Of a stretch of 32,075 nt of DNA, positions 2,390 to 17,732 are shown piece after piece. The DNA comes from Bacteroidota bacterium (GTDB lineage Bacteria > Bacteroidota > Bacteroidia > J057). Both the position numbers and the translations under genes were made by a program. The notes under the pieces were generated by a model. The model saw nothing but the letters and a program-made list of their open reading frames with translations. It ran no database searches and had not been told where the DNA came from. Position 1 is the stretch's first letter, and each line of letters begins with the position of its first letter. The stretch spans positions 1 through 32,075 of the forward strand of contig RFHL01000743.1 of assembly GCA_003696875.1 (NCBI GenBank). The letters run 5' to 3'.

Positions 2390-3280
2390 ATGCCCCCCAG
2401 CTTGCCTGCCCGCCTGACGGCGTCCCTGCTGAAAATCGTTGGCTTCAAGAAAATGGTTGAGAAGCAGGTGAAAAAGCCGATTTCCCGCTCGAAAAAGCCC
2501 TTTGCCCCGACGAAAATTGCGCGAAAATATGTCTGCGCTGTTCAGGAGATTCGGGGCAAAGACATCGCGACCTTCTCTCAGTCTGAGCAAGAGGGCCTGC
2601 CGCACCTGTTTTTCCTGCACGGTGGGGCCTACGTATTTGAGGCCTCTGGCCTCCACTGGGGCCTGGCCGAGAAGCTCGTGCAGGCCCTGGGCTGCCGGCT
2701 GACGCTGGTGGACTATCCCCTGGCGCCCGAGCACACGTACCGGGATACCTTTGCCATGGTGGAGGCGGCCTATGCGTATGTGCGGGAGACCTATCCCGCG
2801 GACCGGTTTGGGTTCCTGGGGGACTCGGCCGGAGCGGGCCTGGCGCTGGCGCTGGCCCAGAAACTGGCCCGATCCGGGCAGGGCCCACTACCCGAGCAAC
2901 TGATCCTGCTGTCTCCCTGGTTGGATATCACCATGCGCAATCCGGAGGCCCGGGCCCAGGAGGCAACGGATCACATCCTTACGCTGGAGATGCTCCGCCA
3001 TACTGGCCACTTGTATAGCGGAGGCGATGACCCGCAACAATATCTCCTCTCGCCCTTGCAGGGCGAGTTGGGAGGACTCCCCCCTACCCAAGTGTTTTAT
3101 AGCACGGAGGAGGTGTTCTATGCTGATTGCCGGGAGCTCGCCCGGCGGGCTGAGGCCGCCGGTGCCGACTTCACTTTTCATGAATATGCGGGCATGCCGC
3201 ATGATTGGGCGGTATTGCCCATCCCGGAGCGCCAGCGGACCGTTGCGGATATCAAGGCCTTCGTGCAGGCCCGCCTATAG
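2390..3280 (+). CDS. Alpha/beta hydrolase, hormone-sensitive-lipase-type esterase (fold-3)
   Basis: Contains the HGGAY oxyanion motif, the GDSAGAG nucleophile elbow and a C-terminal GMPHDW His. The start is uncertain: ATG 2390 is preferred, and GTG 2339 would overlap the upstream stop as GTGA. Confidence 0.85.
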   Translation: MPPSLPARLTASLLKIVGFKKMVEKQVKKPISRSKKPFAPTKIARKYVCAVQEIRGKDIATFSQSEQEGLPHLFFLHGGAYVFEASGLHWGLAEKLVQALGCRLTLVDYPLAPEHTYRDTFAMVEAAYAYVRETYPADRFGFLGDSAGAGLALALAQKLARSGQGPLPEQLILLSPWLDITMRNPEARAQEATDHILTLEMLRHTGHLYSGGDDPQQYLLSPLQGELGGLPPTQVFYSTEEVFYADCRELARRAEAAGADFTFHEYAGMPHDWAVLPIPERQRTVADIKAFVQARL

Positions 3281-4153
3281 GCGGTAGAGGGTATAGGTCC
3301 GGGACCAGGTCTGCCGTTCGCCTGGCGCCAGATTGATCTCGCAAAACAGCTCCGGGCTGATTACATGGCCCACGCCCCAGAGGTTGACCTTGGCGGCGTC
3401 GAAATCGCCTGCTTCGCGGATGCCGATCCCCTGGCGGACATTTTCCAGGCTCCAGGCCGCCTGTACCGGTGCCTCCCCCCCGAGCAGGCTGAAGAAAAAG
3501 GGTGTTTCGGGTGTGTGTTTGAATGAGATCTCCCTGGCCCCAAAGGTAACGACTTCGTGAGGGTTAAGGGCCTCGCCGTACGCACCGGGCTGCAGATCAA
3601 AAGGGAGGCGCAGCCGGTAGGCCGGGCCGGCGGGATCGCCGCCGGGCGCGATGAAATTATGGGTATACTCCTGGGTACGAAGCGGCCGGGTGCCGGTATT
3701 TTCCAGCTGATAGGCAATCCGAAAGCCGCTTTCCAGTAGGGAAATCTGTTTTTGCAGCCGGTAGGCATAGCCATTGACCGGCGCGGCGACAGCCCGGAGG
3801 CTGAGCCGGTCGGCGGCGGATTCGACCTGAAAATCGGCGGGCCGTATGGGATAGGGCTGGTAGAAGCGGTAGGCTTCCTGGTCCCTTTGCAGGGCCCCGA
3901 TCCCGATTTTGGGAAACCAGTCGCCGGGGGCGACGGCATCGTAGCCGATGGGTGTATCCAGCCCAAACTCATTGTAAAACCCCTGCCCAAAGCGGGGATC
4001 AGGCCCGCTCGGCTGTTCGCTGGTGGTGATAGGCAGTCCCTGGAAGCTCAGGTGGGCAATCTTGCCCGTCCAGTCGAAACGAGGCTGCTGGTAGCCCTCC
4101 CGGGGGAGATCAAGGGTCAGGCTTAGCTGGGCGTTGTGGAGTGTGTGGGGCAT
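3275..4153 (-). CDS. Hypothetical protein, family not recognised (possibly an all-beta carbohydrate-binding or mutarotase-like fold)
   Basis: A clean 292-aa ORF with an ATG start and ordinary composition. It lies 84 bp downstream of the anti-sigma-like gene on the same strand. The function is a guess. Confidence 0.7.
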   Translation of the reverse strand: MPHTLHNAQLSLTLDLPREGYQQPRFDWTGKIAHLSFQGLPITTSEQPSGPDPRFGQGFYNEFGLDTPIGYDAVAPGDWFPKIGIGALQRDQEAYRFYQPYPIRPADFQVESAADRLSLRAVAAPVNGYAYRLQKQISLLESGFRIAYQLENTGTRPLRTQEYTHNFIAPGGDPAGPAYRLRLPFDLQPGAYGEALNPHEVVTFGAREISFKHTPETPFFFSLLGGEAPVQAAWSLENVRQGIGIREAGDFDAAKVNLWGVGHVISPELFCEINLAPGERQTWSRTYTLYRL

Positions 4154-4237
4154 GAGGCAGGGGATTGGAACGCCAATATACAGCAGCGGGGGCGTTTCCC
4201 CAGCGATCAGCCGGGCCTGGTGCGCATCCCGGCGGGT

Positions 4238-4951
4238 TTATTCGGCCAGCTCCTCCAGCAGGCTACTGGCACCCGGGCCGTAGGTATCATCGGCGGCGAG
4301 CGCCTGGAAGACGGTACGGGCTGCCGGCAATTGCCCCAGCTTCAGGTAGGCCAGGCCCAGGTACCAAGCGGCATCCGTCTGGTAGGCCGATCCTTCTTTC
4401 TGGGTCAGGGGGGTAAGGTAATCGGCCGCGGCCGCCGCATTGCCCTGACCTAGCTCCGCTACTCCGGCAAAAAAACGGAGGGTATCGCTGGCGGTTTCCT
4501 GGGCCAGCAGGGGCTGCCAGTAGCTCAGGGCGCCGGCGTAGTCGCCCCGCTTATAGGCCACCATGCCTTCGGCCTGGCGCAGCGCGTCGGTCTCGCCCAG
4601 GGTGGTGGGCAGCCCGGGAGCCGGGCTGTAATGGGTCTCAAAGAGGGAGCGGTGCGGGGTCTGCCGCGGCCAGGCCCAGACCATGAGCAAGCAGATCGCC
4701 GCAGCGACGGCGAGGTAGGGCGTCGCCCGCGCCCAGAGGGGCCGCACCTGGGGCAGAGGTTTTGCCATCACCGCCGCCAGGGTTTGGCGGGCGCCCTCCA
4801 GCTCGATGGCCCCCAGCAATTGGCGGTGGGCCTCGAAGGTGACCCGCAGGGCATCATCGGCCGCGAGCTCGGCCTCAAGAGCCTGCCGCTCGGCCGGAGA
4901 GAGTTCTCCCCGCAGATAGGCGTCGATCCGTTCCATCAGTTCCTGTGTCAT
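4238..4951 (-). CDS. Putative single-pass anti-sigma factor with C-terminal TPR repeats
   Basis: The start overlaps the sigma gene stop (tcat at 4948-4951, which is ATGA on the minus strand). The N-terminus MTQELMERIDAYLRGELSPAERQALEAEL is typical of anti-sigma N-terminal helices and has no Zn ligands. There is one TM helix (YLAVAAAICLLMVWAW), followed by TPR-like repeats (AYKRGDYAGALSYW..., AWYLGLAYLKLGQL...). Confidence 0.75.
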   Translation of the reverse strand: MTQELMERIDAYLRGELSPAERQALEAELAADDALRVTFEAHRQLLGAIELEGARQTLAAVMAKPLPQVRPLWARATPYLAVAAAICLLMVWAWPRQTPHRSLFETHYSPAPGLPTTLGETDALRQAEGMVAYKRGDYAGALSYWQPLLAQETASDTLRFFAGVAELGQGNAAAAADYLTPLTQKEGSAYQTDAAWYLGLAYLKLGQLPAARTVFQALAADDTYGPGASSLLEELAE

Positions 4952-5520
4952 GGTTGTGTGTTTGCTTCGGGAAAAAGCTTCTTGAGGCGCTGCATGCAGC
5001 GATATTTTTCATTTTTGGCCGAGGCCTCTCCCAGCTGAAACGCCTCGGCGATCTCTTTCATCGACTGTTTCTCATAGTAAAAGCGCCGGAGGATCTCTTG
5101 GCAGCGCGCCCCCAGCTGGCCGAAACGCGCCTGGAAGGCAGCTTGTTCTTCCCGCTCAATCCAGTGGCTGAGCACATCATCCCCCTGACCGGTTTCGGGC
5201 AGGGTCTCCGGGAAGTACTCATAGCGGGTGCTGGCTTTCTTTTGCTGGTCCATCCATCGGCGTTTACAGATTTCGATCAGATAGGTGCTGAGTTTGGTGT
5301 GCTGGTGGAGGGTGTAGCGGCCCTCCCGGGCATTTTTCCACAAAGCCAGCACCCCTTCCTGGAAGACATCCCGGGCATCGTCCTCGTTGCCCCGGAAGCT
5401 TTTTACCTGCTTGCGTACGGCCGGGTACACCTGCCGGTACAAGTATTCGAAGGCTTGCCGGTTTCCCTTTGGGTCCAGTAGCCGGTCCATGATTTCCTGG
5501 TCCGAAAGCGCCTTTTGCAT
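4948..5520 (-). CDS. ECF-type RNA polymerase sigma-70 family factor
   Basis: Region 2 (YLYRQVYPAVRKQVKSFRGNEDDARDVFQEGVLALW) and a region 4 HTH (EKQSMKEIAEAFQLGEASAKNEKYRCMQRLKKL). At 190 aa it has no regions 1 or 3. Confidence 0.9.
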   Translation of the reverse strand: MQKALSDQEIMDRLLDPKGNRQAFEYLYRQVYPAVRKQVKSFRGNEDDARDVFQEGVLALWKNAREGRYTLHQHTKLSTYLIEICKRRWMDQQKKASTRYEYFPETLPETGQGDDVLSHWIEREEQAAFQARFGQLGARCQEILRRFYYEKQSMKEIAEAFQLGEASAKNEKYRCMQRLKKLFPEANTQP

Positions 5521-5624
5521 AGGGGCAAAAGATACGCTCCTTTTGACAGAGGAAAAAATAGGGCTGGCCAGTGCCGGGCCTTAACGGTAGATCGAGGCCG
5601 GCGGCAGAAGGTCATCACGTGGGG

Positions 5625-8600
5625 TCAGATTTTTTTTCTCCGGATGAGAAAGGCACCGGCCAGGGCCGCGATGGCCAGCAGGCCCAGACTCCACCACAGC
5701 CAGGTATAAGCGGGGCCGATCACAGCCGTATTCTGGCCGGTGAGGACGAGGCCTCCCCAGAAATACGGGGCAAGGCGGGATTCCGGGCTGTTTTGGAGAA
5801 AGGCCAGCTTGGCCTCCCGCAAGGCGGCAGCGGGGGGGGAGCCTGCCCGCAGGGCCGCATAGAAGGGCGTCAGCAAAAGCTGGGATTGCTCATCGTCGAT
5901 GGACCACAGGCTGTGGACCACACTGGGGCAGCCCGCATAGCGAAAGCCGTGGGCCAGAGAGAGCAGGCCCTCGCCCGGCTCGAAGGGGCCCAGGCCGGTC
6001 TCACAGGCGGTGAGAACGGCCAGCTGAGCCGGGAGCAGTTGCTGGTACAGCTCGTAGGTGTGCAGATAGCCATCGGATTCGCCCAGGGTATCGGGCGTCA
6101 GGGCGAGAAAGCTCATGAGCGGGTCGTCGTTTTGCAGGCGGGCATGGGTGCCAAAGTGGAGAATGGCGGCCCCGTAGGCCTCGGTCATGACGGCGGCCTC
6201 GGTGGCCTCGAAGCCGGTGAGGCCTTTGCCCCAACCCCGGTCGGCGAGCCCCTCCACAAAATCAAGCGACCAGGGGGTGGATAGCCAGTGGAGAAAGAGG
6301 GAATCCGGAGCTTGCCTCCCGGCGAGCCGGGCTTGATAGCGGGCCTTAAGCTCGGCGGTAAAGCCCGGCGCAATGCCGAGGATGCCGGTTCCCTCGCCGG
6401 AAAGGGGGCGCGGCGAAGGAAAAAACTGGTGGGCATAGTACAGCGCATGTTGCTGCAGCAGGTAGGCCGGTGACCCGCCAGAGGCGGGGGATTCGGTGAG
6501 CAGAAGCTCAAAGTTGAGGGTATAGAGGGGGCCGTCGGGCAGGATGCGCACGGTCTCGGGTAGGTCCCCATCCAGAGGCGCCCAGAGCCGCTGATGCAGG
6601 TAGTAGGCTAGCGGTTGCAGGCGGGCCGGTGGGGCAGGCTGGCGCAGCATGGCCACATAGCTCTGGAGGGAATCCCGAAAACCCGCTCCCAGCGGGAGGC
6701 TGTAGGTTTGGAAGCGGTCTGCATCGACCCGGAGGACCAGACAGGTCGAGTCGAGGTAGAGGTAGGCCAGCAAGGCCTCGTCGGGCAAGCTGTGCCGGAG
6801 ACTGGCGGGGTCCAGATCGGGGAGGGCATAGCGGGCCTGATGGTAGCCGGGAAAATCCCGCCGGAGCTGTCGCTGGTAGGCTTGCCAGGCCTCGTACACT
6901 GCGGTGCGCTGTGCCGGAGCCATGGCCTTGCCCTCTACTTCGCTACTCTGGTACATATACCGCAGTTGCTCCTCCAGCCGCTCACCGCGCCGTACCAGCG
7001 TGTCGGGGATGCCCGCAAATTGCATGGCCTCCCGCCGCTGCAGGGCGGCGCGGATGCTGCTGCCCCGCACGGCCTGCATGGCGTGCAGCAGGATTCGACG
7101 CCAGCTCGACACCTGGACCGGCTCTTCGGAGCTTAGGGCGAGGTGGGCCAGCCAGGCCAGCCGCCGGTACAAGCGCTGTACCTGAGGACTCCGCCCCTGC
7201 TGGCGGCTGCCCGGGGCAAAGAGTTGGAGATAATCGGGTAGCCAAAGCAGCCAGGCCTGAGCCAGCTGCTCGTAGCGGGTCCAGGCCGCGGCATGGTCGG
7301 GCATGCCAGGGCCAGCAGCCAGTTCCAACTGCAGGTCGATCAGGTCCAGAATGGGCGGCACCAGGGGCTCGATCCGGCCGTTGGCCTGGTTCCCGTCCAG
7401 GCCAACGGCGGCCCAGCCTTGGTCCAGATATGCCTGGGCACTATCCCGCCGGCCCAGTTCGGCAAAGGCCTGAGCCAGCTGGTGCAGGTTTTCCAGGGTA
7501 TGGGCATGGGTGGGGCCCCGGCGGGTACGATAGACGGACAGGGTTTGGCGCCACTGGGACAGGGCGGCCGGAAAGTGGCCCTGGCTCCAGTTGAGCTCGG
7601 CGAGCTCATAGGTGGCATCGGCCCACTTGCCCGACTGGGGGCCCAGAAGCTCGGTATACAGGGCCTGGGCCCGTTCCAGGGCGGGGCGGGCAGCGTGCTC
7701 CCGTCCTTCCTCCCGTGCGATGAGCCCCAGGTTATAGTAACTTTGGGCGATCGTCGCATGGGACTGCCGAAAGTAGGCCTGCCGCTCGGTCAGAGCCAGC
7801 CGAAACAGGGAGTCCGCCGCCTGATATTGTCCCATACCATGGTAGGTAGCACCGAGGCCGTCGAGCAAGTCGGCATACTCGGCGCTGGGCCGGTCCAGCA
7901 GGCTGTCGGCCATGGCCAGGGCCCGGCGGTTGTATACCGCTGCATTGGCCCAGTCCTCCAGCTTGACATAGAGGTAGGCGAGGTTGTAAAAGTTTTGGAT
8001 CAACAAACGGTGGCGGCCACCGGCCTGGTTGGCGGCCACCGCCTGCTGCAGGTAGTAGCGCGCTCCCGGGGCGTCACCCATATCCCCCCGGCTGACGCTG
8101 AGGTTGTTGGCGATGACGGCCCGGTGAGGATGGTCGGGCGGCAGGTTCCGGTTGAAGATCCGCCAGGCCTGGCGGGCCGCCGCGTCGGCTCCGGGGAGGT
8201 CCTCCAGCCCGTCGAGGACGATGTAGAGGGTATTGGCACCGTAGCCGAGCTCGAGGTCCAGGGAGTCAAAGAAAGCTGTACGCAGGGCATGGGCATACTC
8301 AATGGCCTGCCGGGCCGCTTGGCGCTCGTTTTGCTGGAGGTGCAGGAAGGCCTTGAGATCATAGGTCTTCCCCAGGAGGAGGGTATCGGCCAGGGCCGCT
8401 TCCTGCTGGACGGCCAGACTCTGGTCGATGAAGAACATGGCTGAATCGACCGTGCCGGTCTGGGCGTAGGCCAGGGCCAGGGTCTGTGCGCTCTGGGCGG
8501 TGAGCCGGGGGTAAGGCCGGGCGGCCCATATCCGGCGCAGGCGTGCTCGCGCCGGCGCAAAGTTTCCCATCTGTACCTCGCACAGCGCGACCTGGTACCG

Positions 8601-8792
8601 ATAGCGCCACAGGCTATCCGGCTTTTGCCGCGCCTCGAAGCGCTCAGCCAGCCGGGCATAGGCGCTCCGGGCACCCTCAAAATCCCCCTGGGCATAGCTT
8701 TCGATGGCCTGTGCCCGGAGCGTGTCTGGGGATTGCGCCGGTAGGGTGTGGGCAAAGAGGAAAAACAGGCAGGCATTCAGCAGGCGAAGCAT
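5625..8792 (-). CDS. Secreted, C-terminally membrane-anchored TPR-repeat CHAT-domain (caspase-fold) protease
   Basis: Frame of ORF 5625..8846. The ATG at 8792 gives the signal peptide MLRLLNACLFFLFAHTLPAQS. A long TPR-like helical array precedes the CHAT domain. The CHAT domain has ILHFGTHA (His codon 6144-6146) and LAVLTACETG (Cys codon 6003-6005). The C-terminus carries the TM helix WLWWSLGLLAIAALAGAFLI followed by RRKKI. Confidence 0.9.
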   Translation of the reverse strand: MLRLLNACLFFLFAHTLPAQSPDTLRAQAIESYAQGDFEGARSAYARLAERFEARQKPDSLWRYRYQVALCEVQMGNFAPARARLRRIWAARPYPRLTAQSAQTLALAYAQTGTVDSAMFFIDQSLAVQQEAALADTLLLGKTYDLKAFLHLQQNERQAARQAIEYAHALRTAFFDSLDLELGYGANTLYIVLDGLEDLPGADAAARQAWRIFNRNLPPDHPHRAVIANNLSVSRGDMGDAPGARYYLQQAVAANQAGGRHRLLIQNFYNLAYLYVKLEDWANAAVYNRRALAMADSLLDRPSAEYADLLDGLGATYHGMGQYQAADSLFRLALTERQAYFRQSHATIAQSYYNLGLIAREEGREHAARPALERAQALYTELLGPQSGKWADATYELAELNWSQGHFPAALSQWRQTLSVYRTRRGPTHAHTLENLHQLAQAFAELGRRDSAQAYLDQGWAAVGLDGNQANGRIEPLVPPILDLIDLQLELAAGPGMPDHAAAWTRYEQLAQAWLLWLPDYLQLFAPGSRQQGRSPQVQRLYRRLAWLAHLALSSEEPVQVSSWRRILLHAMQAVRGSSIRAALQRREAMQFAGIPDTLVRRGERLEEQLRYMYQSSEVEGKAMAPAQRTAVYEAWQAYQRQLRRDFPGYHQARYALPDLDPASLRHSLPDEALLAYLYLDSTCLVLRVDADRFQTYSLPLGAGFRDSLQSYVAMLRQPAPPARLQPLAYYLHQRLWAPLDGDLPETVRILPDGPLYTLNFELLLTESPASGGSPAYLLQQHALYYAHQFFPSPRPLSGEGTGILGIAPGFTAELKARYQARLAGRQAPDSLFLHWLSTPWSLDFVEGLADRGWGKGLTGFEATEAAVMTEAYGAAILHFGTHARLQNDDPLMSFLALTPDTLGESDGYLHTYELYQQLLPAQLAVLTACETGLGPFEPGEGLLSLAHGFRYAGCPSVVHSLWSIDDEQSQLLLTPFYAALRAGSPPAAALREAKLAFLQNSPESRLAPYFWGGLVLTGQNTAVIGPAYTWLWWSLGLLAIAALAGAFLIRRKKI

Positions 8793-8951
8793 AGGAGACA
8801 CAGACGGTTTGCAGAGGGTAGGGGAAAGGTACAAAAAAGCCTTCAAAAAGGGGCTTGCTTCCTATAACCTGCCAGACAAGGCCTTTTCGTCCTTTTGCTC
8901 AAAAATCCGTATCTTCAGGCATCAGATCTTGTGTATCATACCTTTCTCCTT

Positions 8952-9527
8952 ATGCCCCATCAACCCGCTGTCTTTACCCTCACCGTCGAGGCATATCATC
9001 GCATGCGCGAGGTGGGCATTCTCACCGCCAACGATCGGGTGGAGTTGCTCCGCGGCCAGATCATCCCTATGAGCCCCAAAGGAAGTAAGCACAGTAATGC
9101 TGTAAATCGGCTTGCCAAGGCCTTTACCCTAGGCCTTGATGGCATGGCTGAGGTGCATAATCAAAATCCTATCCATTTGTTGGACGATAGCGAGCCAGAG
9201 CCTGATTTGGCGCTCCTGATTCCTCCGTTAAGCCGCTATGATCACCGGCTGCCGGTCCCTGAAGACATCCTCCTCGTCGTCGAGGTCGCCGACAGTTCGC
9301 TGCGGCAGGACCGGTACGACAAAGCCCCTCTCTATGCCGAGGCCGGCATCCCCGAATACTGGATCGTCAACCTCGCCGATCGCGAGGTGGAGGTCTATCA
9401 GCAGCCGCGCCAGGGCGGCTATAAGGTCTGCACCCGCTACCTGCCAGGTGAGCAATTGCCGGTTGCGCAATTGGATTTTTCCCTGGCGGTAGCCGACATC
9501 CTGGGGGAGGAAGCTCCCGCTGAGTAG
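8952..9527 (+). CDS. Uma2 (DUF820) family restriction-endonuclease-fold protein
   Basis: An ATG at 8952 within ORF 8895..9527. Typical Uma2 pattern: ...RVELLRGQIIPMSP..., EPEPDLALL, LVVEVADSSLRQDRYDKAPLYAEAGIPEYWIVNLADREVEVY. Confidence 0.85.
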   Translation: MPHQPAVFTLTVEAYHRMREVGILTANDRVELLRGQIIPMSPKGSKHSNAVNRLAKAFTLGLDGMAEVHNQNPIHLLDDSEPEPDLALLIPPLSRYDHRLPVPEDILLVVEVADSSLRQDRYDKAPLYAEAGIPEYWIVNLADREVEVYQQPRQGGYKVCTRYLPGEQLPVAQLDFSLAVADILGEEAPAE

Positions 9528-9533
9528 GCCTCC

Positions 9534-10481
9534 TTATGGGGCCAGGGCAAAGGTCGTCATCACCAGGCCATGATCGGAAGGGTAGGGGATGGCCCGCTCG
9601 CCGATCCGCAAGCTGTCGCCCAGAAAAGCCTGATAGGATTCCGAGGCCAGCGCCTGGAGCCCTTTTCCCCGATAAAAAATGTAGTCGATCCGATGCTCGT
9701 CCGTGCGCCCGGGGCTGTCCCAGGTGATGCCGGGATGGGTACCTGGATCGGGATGGATCTCCCGATAGCTGTCCCGCATGCCCAGCTCCGCCAGGTTTTT
9801 GGTGGCGTACCAAGGCACAACCAGCCCCGCATGCTGCGCCCGGGTGTTGGGTCCCCAATCCAGGTGGGAGGGCGAATTCATGTCCCCGCCCAGGATGAGG
9901 GGAATGCTGTCGGCCTCGGCGGCCCAGGCTGTCAGCACGGGTCGCACCTGCCGGATCATCTCGTAGCGCCGCCCGCTATCCTGCTCCCAGGCCAGGAGTT
10001 CGGCGGCGCTCAGGCCCATGGTCTCGGGCGCGTCGTGCCAGGGCAGGTAGTGAAACCAGTTGCTGAGCAGGCGCACCCGCTGGTTGCCGATCAGGATCTC
10101 CCGTCCCCCCAGGTAAAAGGGGTGCTCGCTATCCAGCCGCTCCCCAAAGGGGAAGCGCGAAAAAACGGCCAGGTTGACGCTGGGATCATCTGGGGCCGTG
10201 CCGGCCGGCGCCACCAGGTGCAAGTGATAGCCGAGCGCCTCGGCGATCATAGGGCCCGAACCGTAGGTCTCCACCATCAGCACCACATCCGGGTCCAGCG
10301 CCCGGATAATCTCGATGACATGGGCTGGCCCCTCGGGGATGTCGCGGCCGCCATGCAGGATGTTCCAGGCCATGACCGTGAAGGTTGGGGCGGGAGGAGG
10401 CGTTTTTTCGGTACAGCCAGAACCGCTGAGGCCGATAAGCCCCAGGACCAGGAATAGCAAGGGACGAGGAAGCAGATTCAT
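9534..10481 (-). CDS. Endonuclease/exonuclease/phosphatase (EEP) family lipoprotein
   Basis: Signal peptide with lipobox (LIGLSGSGC). EEP motifs are VMAWNILHGG, VVLMVETY, GGDMNSPSHLDW and YPSDHGLV. Confidence 0.85.
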   Translation of the reverse strand: MNLLPRPLLFLVLGLIGLSGSGCTEKTPPPAPTFTVMAWNILHGGRDIPEGPAHVIEIIRALDPDVVLMVETYGSGPMIAEALGYHLHLVAPAGTAPDDPSVNLAVFSRFPFGERLDSEHPFYLGGREILIGNQRVRLLSNWFHYLPWHDAPETMGLSAAELLAWEQDSGRRYEMIRQVRPVLTAWAAEADSIPLILGGDMNSPSHLDWGPNTRAQHAGLVVPWYATKNLAELGMRDSYREIHPDPGTHPGITWDSPGRTDEHRIDYIFYRGKGLQALASESYQAFLGDSLRIGERAIPYPSDHGLVMTTFALAP

Positions 10482-10512: not shown

Positions 10513-11577
10513 CTATTCGTACAGTGCCCGAATCAGCATTTCCCGCAGGTTGCCCTCGTCTCCGAAGGAGTCGGGATTGAAGCGATCATCATGGCTCAGA
10601 ATGATGAGGGTATGTTTGTCGTCCATCATCCGGACCAGGACCACATTGGCCCCCAGGATGCCGCCCCGGCGCTCCATGATGGTGGGCTGGGCTTCTACAA
10701 AGGGGTAACGGTAGTTCCAGACCCCGTACCCGGCGTAGTTGTATTCCGGATAGGATTGGGCCAGGCACTGCCGACTTTCGGCGCTGAGGAGAGCCTCGCC
10801 ATACAGGGCCTGGTCCAGCTTGAGCAGGTCCCCGGCGGTGGCGTACATGCAGCCGGCCGAGCCAAAATTTTCGATATGGATGAGCGGGTCCTGCTTTAGC
10901 TGCTTCCCTTTTTTTCGATAGGTAAAGGCAAAGTGGCGGGGGTATTGGCCATAGGCCAGGAACCCACTCTGGGTCATGCCGAGGGGCTCCAGGATGTGCT
11001 GGCGGATGTTTTCCTGCCAGCTTTTACCCGTCACGGCTTCGATGATCAGGCCCAGCAGCAGGTAGTCTACATTGTTGTAGTGAAAGGTGCCGACGGGGCC
11101 GGCGGGGCGGCCCGTGAGGGCCTTTTGGACCATCTCTTCAGCGGAGAGGTGCCGGCGGTATAGCCGGTTTTTTTCGTTGGGGAGGCCCGAGAGGTGGAGG
11201 AGCAGGTGGTGCACCGTCACCGCGGCAGGGACCTGCGGGGCAAAACGGGGCAGGTATTGGGTGGCGGCAGCCTGCAGGTCGACCTTGCCGACCTCGGCCA
11301 GCTGGAGGATCCGGATGCTGGTGAAGAGCTTGGTCACCGAGGCGATGCTGTAAGGGGTGGTATGGGTGAGCGAATCGGGCGTTTGTCGATAAGCCAGGCC
11401 ATAGGAACGCCGAAAGATCGGCTGTCCGTGACGGGCGACCAGGATGGTGCCGGAAAAGCCGTGGGCCGCCCGATAGGTATCCACCACCGCCGCGATAGCG
11501 GCGGAGTCGGGACCCGGTTGGCTCCAGGCTGACCCTCCGGTCAGCAGCAGGATCATCAGGATGCGGAGACTGGACAT
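10513..11577 (-). CDS. Serine hydrolase, class C beta-lactamase/PBP-like family
   Basis: Signal peptide, S-x-x-K motif (SIASVTKLF) and Y-x-N motif (YNNVDY). Confidence 0.9.
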   Translation of the reverse strand: MSSLRILMILLLTGGSAWSQPGPDSAAIAAVVDTYRAAHGFSGTILVARHGQPIFRRSYGLAYRQTPDSLTHTTPYSIASVTKLFTSIRILQLAEVGKVDLQAAATQYLPRFAPQVPAAVTVHHLLLHLSGLPNEKNRLYRRHLSAEEMVQKALTGRPAGPVGTFHYNNVDYLLLGLIIEAVTGKSWQENIRQHILEPLGMTQSGFLAYGQYPRHFAFTYRKKGKQLKQDPLIHIENFGSAGCMYATAGDLLKLDQALYGEALLSAESRQCLAQSYPEYNYAGYGVWNYRYPFVEAQPTIMERRGGILGANVVLVRMMDDKHTLIILSHDDRFNPDSFGDEGNLREMLIRALYE

Positions 11578-11639
11578 AAGATGGGGGGTGAAGGGTGAGC
11601 CCCAAACATCCCCAAATTTTGTCAGGAGGCCGTACCTCC

Positions 11640-12785
11640 TCAGGGATCTGCCGGTCCCAATGCGCGTTTTGAGACCTCTTTCAGGTAATCTGCCGGGCTC
11701 TGGCCGGCGATTTTTCGGAATACCCGGTAAAAGGTAGACTTGGAATTGAAGCCTGCGGCCTCCGCGATGCCCAGCAGGCTCAGCTGCACGGCGTCCCCGG
11801 CTTCGAGCCGGGCCTTCACCGCTACGACGCGGTGCTGATTCACAAAGTCAATAAAGCTGACGCCCAGGCCTTGGTTGATCAAACGGGAGACCTCTCTGGG
11901 GGGCATGTCCAGGGCCTGGGCAAAGTCCCGGAGGGTGAGCTCTTGCCGTTGGTAGAGGGCCTGATCGACCATGATGCCCTGGAGCCGGGCCAGGGCTGCC
12001 TGATCGCCTGCGTCCACCGGGTGGGCTGAGGCGGAGGGTTCGGGCTCAGCGGGCGGTAGTGCCTCGGCTACGGATTTGAGGTCTTGCTGCAGGATCCCTC
12101 CTGCGGCGAGGAAAAGCAGGGCCGTACCGATGCTGATGGCCGAAAAGGGCGTGGCCGGGTAGTAGGCCCAGATCAGCCGACCCGCCGCCTCAACCAGCCA
12201 AAAGGCGGCCAGAAAGGCCAAAACGCCGTGGAGGCCGCTGAGCCAGTTTAGGGTGATGCGGTGCAGGCTGGAGTAATAATTATCCACCCGCTGCCGGTAT
12301 GCCTTGATTTGCCGCCATCCCAGGGTGAGATAAGTGATCAGGCTGGCGAGGCTCAGGATTAATTCGGCGTCGTAGGTGTAGGGCCGGTGGATGTGAAACC
12401 AGAAGTCCCGCCGGAAGCTGTAGCTCTGGGTTTGCAAGAAGAAGTACCCGGCTCCTTGCAAGGCTGCGGGCAGGAAGTGCCAGACCTGTCGCCAGCCGAA
12501 GCCAAAGTCAGGCTCGGTCAGGGTCCGGGTGTAAAAGTAGATCAAGGGGCCAAAGGCCAGCGAATAGTAAATCGGCAGGAAATAAAAGTCGGGGGTTTGC
12601 TGGTAGATTTCGGCCACCCTGAAAAAGGCGTCCCCCAGCCAGAGCGCCAGGAAGAAGACCAACAGGGCCAGATAGCGGTTGGCGGTGCGGTTGGCCGGCC
12701 GGAAACTGAGCAGCAAGGTCGCAAATACGCCCTGGGCCATCAGGGCCCCGAGGATGATAACGGGCAGGGTAAAGGGAATTCGCAT
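11640..12785 (-). CDS. Membrane-embedded AraC/XylS-family transcriptional regulator
   Basis: The N-terminal ~230 aa contain multiple hydrophobic helices. The C-terminus has the AraC double HTH (LTLRDFAQALDMPPREVSRLINQ..., IAEAAGFNSKSTFYRVFRKIAGQSPADY). Confidence 0.85.
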   Translation of the reverse strand: MRIPFTLPVIILGALMAQGVFATLLLSFRPANRTANRYLALLVFFLALWLGDAFFRVAEIYQQTPDFYFLPIYYSLAFGPLIYFYTRTLTEPDFGFGWRQVWHFLPAALQGAGYFFLQTQSYSFRRDFWFHIHRPYTYDAELILSLASLITYLTLGWRQIKAYRQRVDNYYSSLHRITLNWLSGLHGVLAFLAAFWLVEAAGRLIWAYYPATPFSAISIGTALLFLAAGGILQQDLKSVAEALPPAEPEPSASAHPVDAGDQAALARLQGIMVDQALYQRQELTLRDFAQALDMPPREVSRLINQGLGVSFIDFVNQHRVVAVKARLEAGDAVQLSLLGIAEAAGFNSKSTFYRVFRKIAGQSPADYLKEVSKRALGPADP

Positions 12786-12811
12786 AGAAGAGGACCGAAA
12801 GCGGTAAAGGC

Positions 12812-16655: not shown

Positions 16656-17732
16656 ATGCCTACCGACCCGGCCTCCCCCCTCCCCTTCGCCTGCGGCGCG
16701 CGCATGAAGAACCGCTTCATGCTCGCCCCGCTCACCAATACCCAGAGCCATCCCGATGGCACCCTCTCCGACGATGAGTACCGCTGGCTCACCATGCGTG
16801 CCGAGGGGCAGTTTGGGTTGGTGATGACCTGTGCCGCGCATGTGCAGGCGCGGGGACAGGGCTTTCCGGGGCAGCTCGGCATCTGGGGCGATCATCAGCT
16901 GCCCGGCCACCGCCGGCTGGCGGCGGGCATACAGGCGCAGGGTGCCCTGGCCGTGGTGCAGTTGCACCACGCGGGCCTGCGCGCCCCCGCCGAGCTCATC
17001 GGCGAGCCCCCCGTCTCCCCCTCTGGCAGCCCCAAGCATGGGGCGCGGGCGCTCAGCCTCGAGGAGGTGGAGCAACTGCGCGAGGACTTCCTCGCGGCGG
17101 CCCGCCGGGCCCAGACCGCCGGCTACGACGGCGTGGAGATCCATGGGGCCCACGGCTACATCCTCACGCAATTCCTCTCCGCTGAAGTCAACCAGCGGAC
17201 CGACCGCTACGGCGGCAGCCTGGCAAACCGGGCCCGCCTGCTGTACGAAATCGTCGCGGACATCCGGGACGCCTGCGGCCCGGACTTTCTGCTGGGCGTG
17301 CGCCTGTCGCCTGAGCGCTTTGGCATGAAGCTGGCCGAGATGAAGACCATCGCCCAAGGGCTGATCGACGCGGGGCAGGTGGACTTTCTCGACTTCTCGC
17401 TCTGGGACTGCTTCAAGCTTCCCGAGGAGGCGGATGAGACACAAGTCCCTCTGGTTGAGCACGTTGCCCACCTGGACTTCAAGCAAATCCGATGGACGGC
17501 GGCAGGCAAGATCTATACCGGGGCCGAGGTGGCCCGGGTCCTGGCTGCCGGGGCCGACTTCGTCACCCTGGGCCGGGCGGGCATCCTGCATCACGACTTC
17601 CCGGCGCGGGTCATGGCGGAGCCTGATTTTGTGCCGGTAGGCCTACCCGTGACCGCCGAGTACCTGCGGAGCGAGGGCTTGGGCGAGGCTTTCATCAACT
17701 ATATGCGCCGCTGGCAGGGTTTTGTAGGCTGA
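16656..17732 (+). CDS. NADH:flavin oxidoreductase, Old Yellow Enzyme family
   Basis: An ATG at 16656 within ORF 16629..17732. Motifs are KNRFMLAPLTN, VVQLHHAG, GYDGVEIHGAHGYILTQFLS and NQRTDRYGGSLANRARL. Confidence 0.9.
   Translation: MPTDPASPLPFACGARMKNRFMLAPLTNTQSHPDGTLSDDEYRWLTMRAEGQFGLVMTCAAHVQARGQGFPGQLGIWGDHQLPGHRRLAAGIQAQGALAVVQLHHAGLRAPAELIGEPPVSPSGSPKHGARALSLEEVEQLREDFLAAARRAQTAGYDGVEIHGAHGYILTQFLSAEVNQRTDRYGGSLANRARLLYEIVADIRDACGPDFLLGVRLSPERFGMKLAEMKTIAQGLIDAGQVDFLDFSLWDCFKLPEEADETQVPLVEHVAHLDFKQIRWTAAGKIYTGAEVARVLAAGADFVTLGRAGILHHDFPARVMAEPDFVPVGLPVTAEYLRSEGLGEAFINYMRRWQGFVG

Follow-up and report, generated by a model that had tools for sequence, protein, structure and literature searches.

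A TPR-CHAT protease gene linked to an ECF sigma/anti-sigma pair in Bacteroidota: a putative unfused variant of the Myxococcus DdvA/DdvS switch

The 32,075-nucleotide contig RFHL01000743.1 of a Bacteroidota bacterium (assembly GCA_003696875.1), referred to in its entirety as the window, carries three co-directional genes on its minus strand, which encode a protein with tetratricopeptide repeats (TPR) and a CHAT domain, a sigma factor of the extracytoplasmic function (ECF) type and an anti-sigma-like protein with a single transmembrane (TM) helix (Table 1). An earlier note, made from the DNA alone, had described this trio as a possible protease-gated sigma switch. The gene layout given there was confirmed by the open reading frames and by direct reading of the sequence: 104 bp separate the CHAT gene from the sigma gene and 84 bp the anti-sigma gene from the next gene downstream, and the sigma stop overlaps the anti-sigma start in ATGA (...CCATGACACAG). 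Likewise, the proposed architecture of the proteins, i.e., signal-like N-terminus, TPR solenoid, CHAT domain with His and Cys, and C-terminal TM helix with RRKKI in the first, an ECF sigma factor in the second and one TM helix with C-terminal TPRs in the third, agreed with Pfam, NCBIfam, hydropathy and alignments. An in-frame TTG is present upstream of the CHAT gene at 8846, and the ATG at 8792 agrees with the N-termini of the orthologues.

The CHAT protein starts with a predicted Sec signal peptide, N-terminal hydrophobic segments being general in this protein family, and matches TPR_12 in four stretches N-terminal to the CHAT domain (Pfam). Its AlphaFold2 (AF2) model, computed with 64 homologues (pLDDT 89.6, pTM 0.84), shows a TPR-like solenoid of about 30 helices and about 640 residues (aa 22-654), followed by the alpha/beta CHAT domain and, after a linker of about 10 residues, a C-terminal helix (aa 1030-1054). 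In alignments, His883 and Cys930 are unchanged in all seven homologues compared, and Cys930 also in a set of 64. Most Bacteroidota homologues feature the C-terminal TM helix and a basic tail as well. With a CHAT domain carrying His and Cys behind a helical-repeat solenoid, the protein belongs by class to the TPR-CHAT proteases (separase/craspase/DdvA, clan CD), and endopeptidase activity is predicted. The signal-like N-terminus, the C-terminal TM helix and RRKKI on the inside predict that it is exported and located on the periplasmic side, at the outer face of the inner membrane.

Structural comparison pointed to the same class. A Foldseek search of the PDB ranked DdvA of Myxococcus xanthus first (8RW5/8ROT, best E = 7.9e-14), followed by human and yeast separases and Csx29, with E values for DdvA, separase and Csx29 ranging from 1e-10 to 1e-14. 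The profile search against the PDB was restricted to the CHAT-domain alignment, a full-length CHAT profile being swamped by TPR proteins; here again DdvA was the best match (8ROT_B, E = 4.6e-10), with LATHG and LAACE aligned, ahead of Csx29 (1e-8) and separase (0.3). Single-sequence phmmer searches of the PDB with the cassette proteins matched neither DdvA nor DdvS, and DdvA and the CHAT protein share little sequence identity, about 15% when aligned by fold.

The sigma factor comprises regions 2 and 4 only, within 190 residues, and is thus a group 4 (ECF) sigma factor: Sigma70_r2 scores 39.5 bits (cut-off 24) and r4 24.2 bits (cut-off 24.1) in Pfam, and TIGR02937 (75.8 bits vs. a cut-off of 42.9) places it in the ECF superfamily. 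The nearest NCBIfam subfamily, TIGR02985 (Sig70_bacteroi1), remains under its cut-off (72 vs. 126 bits). A profile of the sigma factor matched the structures of RpoE (2q1z, E = 2e-16) as well as SigW and SigL, and hydropathy analysis gave zero TM helices, as it did for the 292-aa protein encoded downstream of the cassette.

For the anti-sigma factor, zf-HC2 at aa 4-27 falls marginally under the cut-off (22.0 vs. 22.2), TPR_16/TPR_19 match the C-terminal part (Pfam) and hydropathy shows one TM helix at about aa 73-95. The AF2 model (pLDDT 84.5) features three N-terminal helices (aa 3-63), a low-confidence linker, the TM helix (aa 73-92) and a predicted periplasmic part composed of a helix (aa 99-107), an extended segment (aa 108-120) and six TPR helices (aa 121-236), for which Foldseek returned the peptide-binding three-repeat TPRs CTPR3, Hop, RPAP3, PcrH and YbgF-like proteins. 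The N-terminal helical domain and the position of the gene directly 3' of the sigma gene with the ATGA overlap, which is kept in L001, L003, L009, L092 and L096 (L numbers denote related loci), identify a class-I anti-sigma factor. The HxxxCxxC motif of the zinc-binding (ZAS) subclass was not found in the window protein, where the aligned position reads EAELAADDALR; since the distant homologues in L009, L035, L046 and P0082 keep H..C..C, the window protein is a non-zinc descendant of ZAS-type anti-sigma factors. We infer that it binds and inhibits the adjacent sigma factor, the N-terminal helices holding it in the cytoplasm. Hydropathy and the AF2 models agree with the suggestion of the earlier note that the protease and the anti-sigma TPR domain are located on the same extracytoplasmic side.

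Conservation of the trio in relatives had been set in advance as a test of the proposal, and it was found: the 4-bp overlap is kept despite different flanks, and the linkage persists through rearrangement. Five full-length CHAT orthologues at 47-52% identity stand apart from a large TPR-CHAT background at no more than 30%. In L003, L004 and L005, the order CHAT > sigma > anti-sigma occurs with the 4-bp overlap between unrelated flanks, L001 contains an additional 366-aa gene between CHAT and sigma, and in L009, whose CHAT homologue is 25% identical, the sigma/anti-sigma pair lies divergently, directly beside CHAT. A scan with one genome per species yielded 80 CHAT loci, mostly from Bacteroidota and including Saprospiraceae, Cryomorphaceae, Emticicia, Cyclobacteriaceae and Lewinella. 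According to hidden Markov models (HMMs) built on four sigma and four anti-sigma seeds, homologous pairs adjoin CHAT in about half of these loci. Matches to the anti-sigma HMM are not TPR noise, because they cover the entire model, i.e., the anti-sigma domain (ASD), the TM helix and the TPR. Several arrangements were seen, among them CHAT > sigma > anti-sigma, the pair divergent from CHAT (anti-sigma < sigma, CHAT >), and sigma > anti-sigma > CHAT. The last one was also found in Acidobacteriota, with a CHAT protein devoid of the C-terminal TM helix. In all Bacteroidota loci examined, CHAT and the anti-sigma factor are separate polypeptides. Recurring in many independent genomes, the arrangement is far beyond chance; the background for chance linkage is low, as class-I anti-sigma factors go with only about 6% of Bacteroidetes ECFs (PMC7406223).

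Linkage between CHAT and the anti-sigma family follows the membrane-anchored form of the protease. Among species-representative loci flanked on either side by 3 kb or more, the anti-sigma family was found within 5 kb of 23 of the 30 CHAT genes encoding a C-terminal TM helix, vs. 2 of the 12 without one (Fisher, p = 0.001). The reverse approach, a protein search with the anti-sigma factor and inspection of four genomic contexts, revealed a pair followed by a 1033-aa TPR-CHAT in L096. In L094, the place of CHAT behind a pair (29% identity) is taken by a clan relative, a Peptidase_C14 caspase of 633 aa, and a further C14 gene is present in this locus.

Table 1. Features of the cassette and its surroundings in the window, and of related loci (L numbers) mentioned in the text; a slash marks the predicted signal peptide cleavage site.
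Feature	Position	Strand	Basis or remark
TPR-CHAT protease gene, 1055 aa	5625..8792	-	Open reading frame list, Pfam, AF2 model, Foldseek, orthologues at 47-65% identity
Predicted Sec signal peptide, aa 1-19, MLRLLNACLFFLFAHTLPA/QS	8736..8792	-	Hydropathy; orthologue N-termini, e.g., ..VWVWA/QAP
CHAT (caspase-fold) domain, aa 727-1020	5733..6614	-	PF12770, E = 6e-43, full-length domain
Catalytic His883	6144..6146	-	Invariant alignment column
Catalytic Cys930	6003..6005	-	Invariant alignment column
C-terminal TM helix, aa 1032-1050, then predicted cytoplasmic tail RRKKI	5643..5699	-	Hydropathy 2.12; AF2 helix 1030-1054
A-rich tract	5640..5660	-	Overlaps RRKKI codons
Candidate ECF-type promoter of the sigma operon, TGATGACCT-N14-CGATCTA	5588..5617	-	A-tract ahead; putative function
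ECF (group 4) sigma factor, 190 aa	4948..5520	-	Sigma70_r2, r4; TIGR02937; profile matches to structures
Single-pass anti-sigma factor, 237 aa	4238..4951	-	ASD aa 1-63; TM helix about aa 73-95; juxtamembrane linker; predicted periplasmic three-repeat TPR aa 121-236
Juxtamembrane periplasmic motif GLPTTLG, aa 113-119	4595..4615	-	G113-G119 invariant in close subfamily; candidate cleavage/docking site
292-aa gene	3275..4153	-	Open reading frame list; Pfam- and NCBIfam-matchless
Uma2-family gene (putative restriction-endonuclease-like)	8895..9527	+	PADLOC candidate defence family PDC-S03, E = 2e-16
Predicted lipoprotein family member	L001 8053..9153		
Predicted lipoprotein family member	L016 10229..11398		
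Predicted lipoprotein family members	L018 10186..11433, 11523..12794		
Predicted lipoprotein family member	L092 7141..8238		
Predicted lipoprotein family member	L095 4163..4993		
Predicted lipoprotein family remnant	L012 6281..6514		
Sigma/anti-sigma pair and Peptidase_C14 gene	L094 8331..11642		
Further Peptidase_C14 gene	L094 15302..16561		
Sigma/anti-sigma pair and three tandem TPR-CHAT genes	L022 2046..12958		
Short CHAT-only gene, then 864-aa TPR gene	L035 6890..7684, 7684..10275		
Por_Secre_tail protein genes	L049 4266..5426; L025 3888..4937		
TPR-CHAT, 302-aa and cyclase genes	L007 8001..14247		
Uma2 gene	L095 6404..7000		

Several loci deviate in the form of their CHAT genes. Short CHAT-only genes of about 260 aa, covering profile positions 96-288 (the catalytic part) and a C-terminal TM helix, lie directly 3' of sigma > anti-sigma in L035, L038, L040, L042, L044, L045, L048, L051 and L084. 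In L035, the short gene is followed by an 864-aa TPR protein with CHAT profile positions 3-79 at its C-terminus, and in several of the other loci a weak CHAT-like TPR gene is convergent to the short CHAT gene. In L022, from a metagenome-assembled genome of Cyclobacteriaceae, three TPR-CHAT paralogues (about 1040-1066 aa each, all featuring a C-terminal TM helix) stand in tandem behind one sigma pair.

The short region between the CHAT and the sigma gene harbors a conserved promoter-like element. The two-block pattern TGATGACCT-N14-CKAKNNA has a single match in the window, even with two mismatches allowed, and the exact 9-mer with C-K-A-K-N-N-A at equal spacing is found just past the CHAT stop in L001, L003, L011, L012, L014, L016, L018 and L020. 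In the CHAT-less loci L092 and L095, it is located 37-41 nt upstream of an operon consisting of a 366-aa family gene, sigma and anti-sigma, and wherever the 366-aa gene is present, the element sits ahead of it. Extra copies precede a 236-aa gene in L092 and the second 366-aa-family paralogue in L018. Based on its position, its two-block form and its conservation across otherwise unalignable intergenic DNA, the element is probably the cognate autoregulatory ECF promoter of the sigma operon. The pattern scan found no copy of the element 5' of the CHAT gene; a further exact copy of TGATGACCT, at 16822, lacks a -10 block and falls within coding sequence, and scans of 3000-9100 for sigma-70-type promoters and intrinsic terminators performed no better than shuffles. 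The idea of a shared ECF-type promoter upstream of 8792 and 4153 was consequently not borne out, the conserved element being present only between the CHAT and sigma genes. Because the element lies 3' and not 5' of CHAT, the protease would be an input rather than an output of the switch in this arrangement.

Most loci further have 7-8 A residues in an A-rich tract located 10-25 nt upstream of TGATGACCT. In the window this tract overlaps the RRKKI codons, equivalents are present in L001, L014, L016, L018 and L020, and it may be what is left of a terminator or act as an UP-like element. In many relatives, the sigma operon opens with a gene for a member of the predicted lipoprotein family of about 276-366 aa mentioned above (lipobox LGVAC in L001, no Pfam match). 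The window lacks this family, which probably belongs to the regulon, because the TGATGACCT element precedes each copy.

The closest known system was overlooked by the earlier note, which knew of no experimentally characterised member of such a cassette: DdvS/DdvA of M. xanthus, for which a site-1 step by CHAT had already been proposed (PMC6061681, PMC11506125). DdvA is a transmembrane ZAS anti-sigma factor with a periplasmic TPR-CHAT part of about 900 residues and a canonical dyad, and its partner is the ECF sigma factor DdvS (PMC11506125; PMC6061681). Without TPR-CHAT, DdvA becomes an RseP substrate and is degraded in an RseP-dependent manner, and the authors proposed that signal-induced CHAT autoproteolysis, in trans across the dimer, provides the site-1 step; in the structure, the CHAT active site faces the linker of the partner protomer (PMC11506125). 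The window cassette shares with this system the ECF sigma factor co-encoded with a single-pass class-I (ZAS-type) anti-sigma factor, a TPR-CHAT module with an intact His/Cys dyad on the predicted periplasmic side, and a flexible juxtamembrane linker as presumed cleavage site, matching the sequence of site-1 protease and RseP proposed for DdvA. In contrast to DdvA, the anti-sigma factor and TPR-CHAT are separate polypeptides with the sigma gene between them, the CHAT protein is predicted to carry a signal peptide and a C-terminal TM anchor of its own, and the anti-sigma factor, whose zinc ligands are lost, keeps no more than a TPR of three repeats. Furthermore, a CBASS/CRISPR island is not linked here and the host belongs to the Bacteroidota, whereas fused DdvA-like proteins were reported solely from Myxococcota and one Comamonas (PMC11506125). 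The cassette therefore reads as an unfused, non-defence-linked variant of the Myxococcus DdvA/DdvS switch and not as a new category.

A second parallel is provided by the type III-E craspase, in which Cas7-11 acts with the TPR-CHAT protease Csx29, Csx30 and an RpoE-family sigma factor (PMC10028731). There, too, a TPR-CHAT protease is genetically coupled to an ECF-family sigma factor, the Csx29 route being cleavage of a sigma-binding protein, and Csx29 is a strong fold match to the CHAT protein (TM-score up to 0.63 normalised to the target). However, craspase is cytoplasmic, RNA-activated via Cas7-11 and CRISPR-linked, whereas Cas7-11, a CRISPR array and Csx30 were not found here, export and membrane anchoring are predicted for the protease, and the candidate substrate is a classical transmembrane anti-sigma factor. 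That no CRISPR-Cas system accompanies the trio was upheld by all scans: neither a tandem or CRISPR array nor any Rfam family, the CRISPR repeat included, was found in the window, the cassette proteins had zero matches to PADLOC defence models, and there was no Cas gene among the PADLOC-tested proteins or the Pfam-scanned open reading frames of the window. Caspase-superfamily protease, TPR protein and ECF sigma factor are also co-encoded in the EACC2-caspase neighbourhoods described by Kaur, Iyer, Burroughs and Aravind, with a proposed protease-to-transcription output (PMC8195603); by their description, these are set apart from our cassette as predicted intracellular conflict systems of the EACC2-caspase and DUF1822 families. 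In the full-text literature searched, a limited collection, we found no description of a split CHAT/sigma/anti-sigma module.

Anti-sigma factors controlled by regulated intramembrane proteolysis (RIP), including RseA with DegS and RseP of E. coli as well as RsiW with PrsW and RsiV of B. subtilis, resemble the window protein in being single-pass, with a cytoplasmic sigma-binding and an extracytoplasmic domain. Once the extracytoplasmic domain has been removed in these systems, site-2 cleavage can proceed, and an ECF promoter drives autoregulation of the operon. Whereas site-1 cleavage is known to be carried out by a PDZ serine protease, a metalloprotease or signal peptidase, the enzyme proposed here would be a cysteine protease of the caspase fold, equipped with a TPR sensor and encoded next to its substrate.

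The three genes are very probably functionally linked: the linkage survives rearrangement and depends on topology, DdvA provides a Rosetta-stone fusion, and a clan-related caspase can substitute for CHAT. The best single model, which we hold as close to an even call, is that CHAT serves as ligand-gated, trans-acting site-1 protease of the anti-sigma factor, followed by site-2 cleavage and release of the sigma factor onto the TGATGACCT promoter. A periplasmic cue, probably a protein or peptide, would be sensed by the long TPR solenoid, and this would activate the His883/Cys930 dyad of CHAT. The protease would then cut the anti-sigma factor in trans, in or near the juxtamembrane linker, an RseP-type site-2 protease together with cytoplasmic proteases would complete its removal, and the freed sigma factor would transcribe its own operon from TGATGACCT-N14-CKAKNNA along with unlinked targets, which in relatives could include the 366-aa lipoprotein family.

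Cleavage of the anti-sigma factor by CHAT is what we infer as a plausible step. In the AF2 models, the CHAT domain is only about 10 residues away from its own TM helix, and the GLPTTLG motif of the anti-sigma factor lies 18-24 residues beyond its TM helix, a geometry that could suit a membrane-proximal cut. In the close anti-sigma subfamily the full motif reads ..F/Y-x-x-x-P-GLPTTLG, and the AF2 model places it in the extended stretch that connects helix 99-107 to the TPR. We also count in favor of site-1 cleavage that short CHAT-only genes directly follow the TPR-bearing anti-sigma genes and that a C14 caspase takes CHAT's place in L094.

A number of observations weigh against such a role of CHAT. 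The topology of both membrane proteins is derived solely from hydropathy and the positive-inside rule. For DdvA itself, CHAT proteolysis was not triggered by the authors, and dyad mutants behaved like the wild type in unstimulated cells (PMC11506125). GLPTTLG is confined to the close anti-sigma subfamily and is found there also in members without a neighbouring CHAT. The periplasmic domain of the anti-sigma factor bears no particular resemblance to DdvA and is not supported as a counterpart of the DdvA scaffold, as Foldseek gave generic three-repeat TPRs only. Finally, the gene linkage on which the earlier note had built proved frequent across Bacteroidota and strong, but not obligatory: no CHAT was found within 5-9 kb of the anti-sigma homologues in L095 (54% identity) and L092 (40%), and no sigma pair within 7 kb of the 47%-identical CHAT orthologue in L006/L013. 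An overlapping 177/195-aa gene pair beside the L006 CHAT was tried as a divergent sigma/anti-sigma pair and rejected, as sigma domains were not found.

Operons with a sigma/anti-sigma pair and no nearby CHAT imply that the anti-sigma factor may be releasable without it. In an alternative scenario, CHAT could act as a co-sensor or partner that cleaves another periplasmic substrate (e.g., a foreign protein, a co-encoded lipoprotein or type IX secretion system [T9SS] cargo) or itself, with the anti-sigma TPR sensing the product or the conformation of CHAT and the sigma factor being freed by a conventional site-1 protease or a conformational change. The resemblance of the anti-sigma TPR to the peptide-binding repeats of Hop, RPAP3 and PcrH, and the extra conserved exported genes of many loci (the 366-aa lipoprotein family, Por_Secre_tail proteins), would fit this scenario. 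We nevertheless regard it as unlikely, considering that the fused DdvA points its CHAT active site at the linker of the partner protomer (PMC11506125), that short CHAT-only genes occur directly 3' of the anti-sigma gene, and that the modelled juxtamembrane geometry would favor a direct cut.

Alternatively, CHAT could be an output of the sigma factor, i.e., an effector or co-regulated gene whose adjacency reflects regulon membership. Sigma > anti-sigma > CHAT arrangements would indeed co-transcribe CHAT with the sigma gene, and the up to three tandem CHAT paralogues after one pair in L022 look more effector-like. Set against this, the conserved promoter lies 3' of CHAT in the window and nine other loci with no copy 5' of it, and the fused DdvA shows that CHAT can belong to the sensor itself (PMC11506125), which makes an output role rather improbable in our view. 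Meaningless adjacency, conceivable given the abundance of both TPR-CHAT genes and ECF pairs in Bacteroidota and the breaks of linkage in some close relatives, is highly improbable and already disfavoured by the presence of the anti-sigma family, across families and in several gene orders, near most CHAT genes of the membrane-anchored form, by the linkage in Acidobacteriota loci and by the fusion in Myxococcota (PMC11506125).

Extending the site-1 model beyond the window, periplasmic proteases of the caspase fold with a membrane anchor (CHAT and, for certain lineages, Peptidase_C14) might constitute dedicated, trans-acting and ligand-gated site-1 proteases of the ASD-TM-TPR anti-sigma family across Bacteroidota, with relatives in Acidobacteriota, a generalization that we put forward tentatively. 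If true, this would represent a widespread caspase-to-sigma transcriptional pathway outside CRISPR and defence, of which the fused DdvA of Myxococcota is a special case. The split cassette would also extend the known range of CHAT-linked anti-sigma factors, so far a few Myxococcota, to many Bacteroidota. DdvA is currently the only known case of an ECF sigma factor under periplasmic TPR-CHAT control, and its protease and presumed substrate are one molecule; as the natural split separates enzyme from substrate, the CHAT site-1 hypothesis is directly testable here, both genetically and in vitro. ECF regulation in Bacteroidota is poorly understood and class-I anti-sigma factors are reported to be rare (PMC7406223). 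The cassette indicates a previously unremarked mode of ECF regulation in this phylum. In this context, the candidate cognate promoter might aid the search for the regulon.

Apart from the cassette, the window contains no defence island, its neighbouring genes being metabolic or regulatory. The 292-aa gene downstream of the anti-sigma gene, listed as a neighbour in the earlier note, was tried as a fourth cassette component and rejected, as none of the related loci contains a homologue. Its family, large and well conserved in Bacteroidota, has members of about 294 aa and comprises at least 722 homologues (46-54% identity, all annotated as hypothetical) from hosts including Maribacter, Robiginitalea, Labilibaculum and Vicingaceae, and since this widespread family sits in unrelated neighbourhoods, the gene is placed outside the cassette. 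Divergent from CHAT lies a Uma2-family gene; a Uma2 gene also abuts the anti-sigma gene in L095. Further genes of the window encode EEP-family and beta-lactamase-fold proteins, AraC and TetR regulators, a molybdopterin enzyme, and FG-GAP, YHYH and DUF4249 proteins.

Other CHAT loci differ in their accessory genes. In divergent loci of Saprospiraceae (L049 and L025, with homologues in L028 and L030), the gene between the pair and CHAT encodes a protein with a C-terminal T9SS sorting domain (Por_Secre_tail), and in Emticicia a different conserved gene of about 390-420 aa, without Pfam match, takes its place. L007 represents another CHAT signalling neighbourhood, in which a more distant TPR-CHAT gene (P0008, without C-terminal TM helix) precedes genes for a 302-aa protein and a CHASE2-guanylate/adenylate cyclase.

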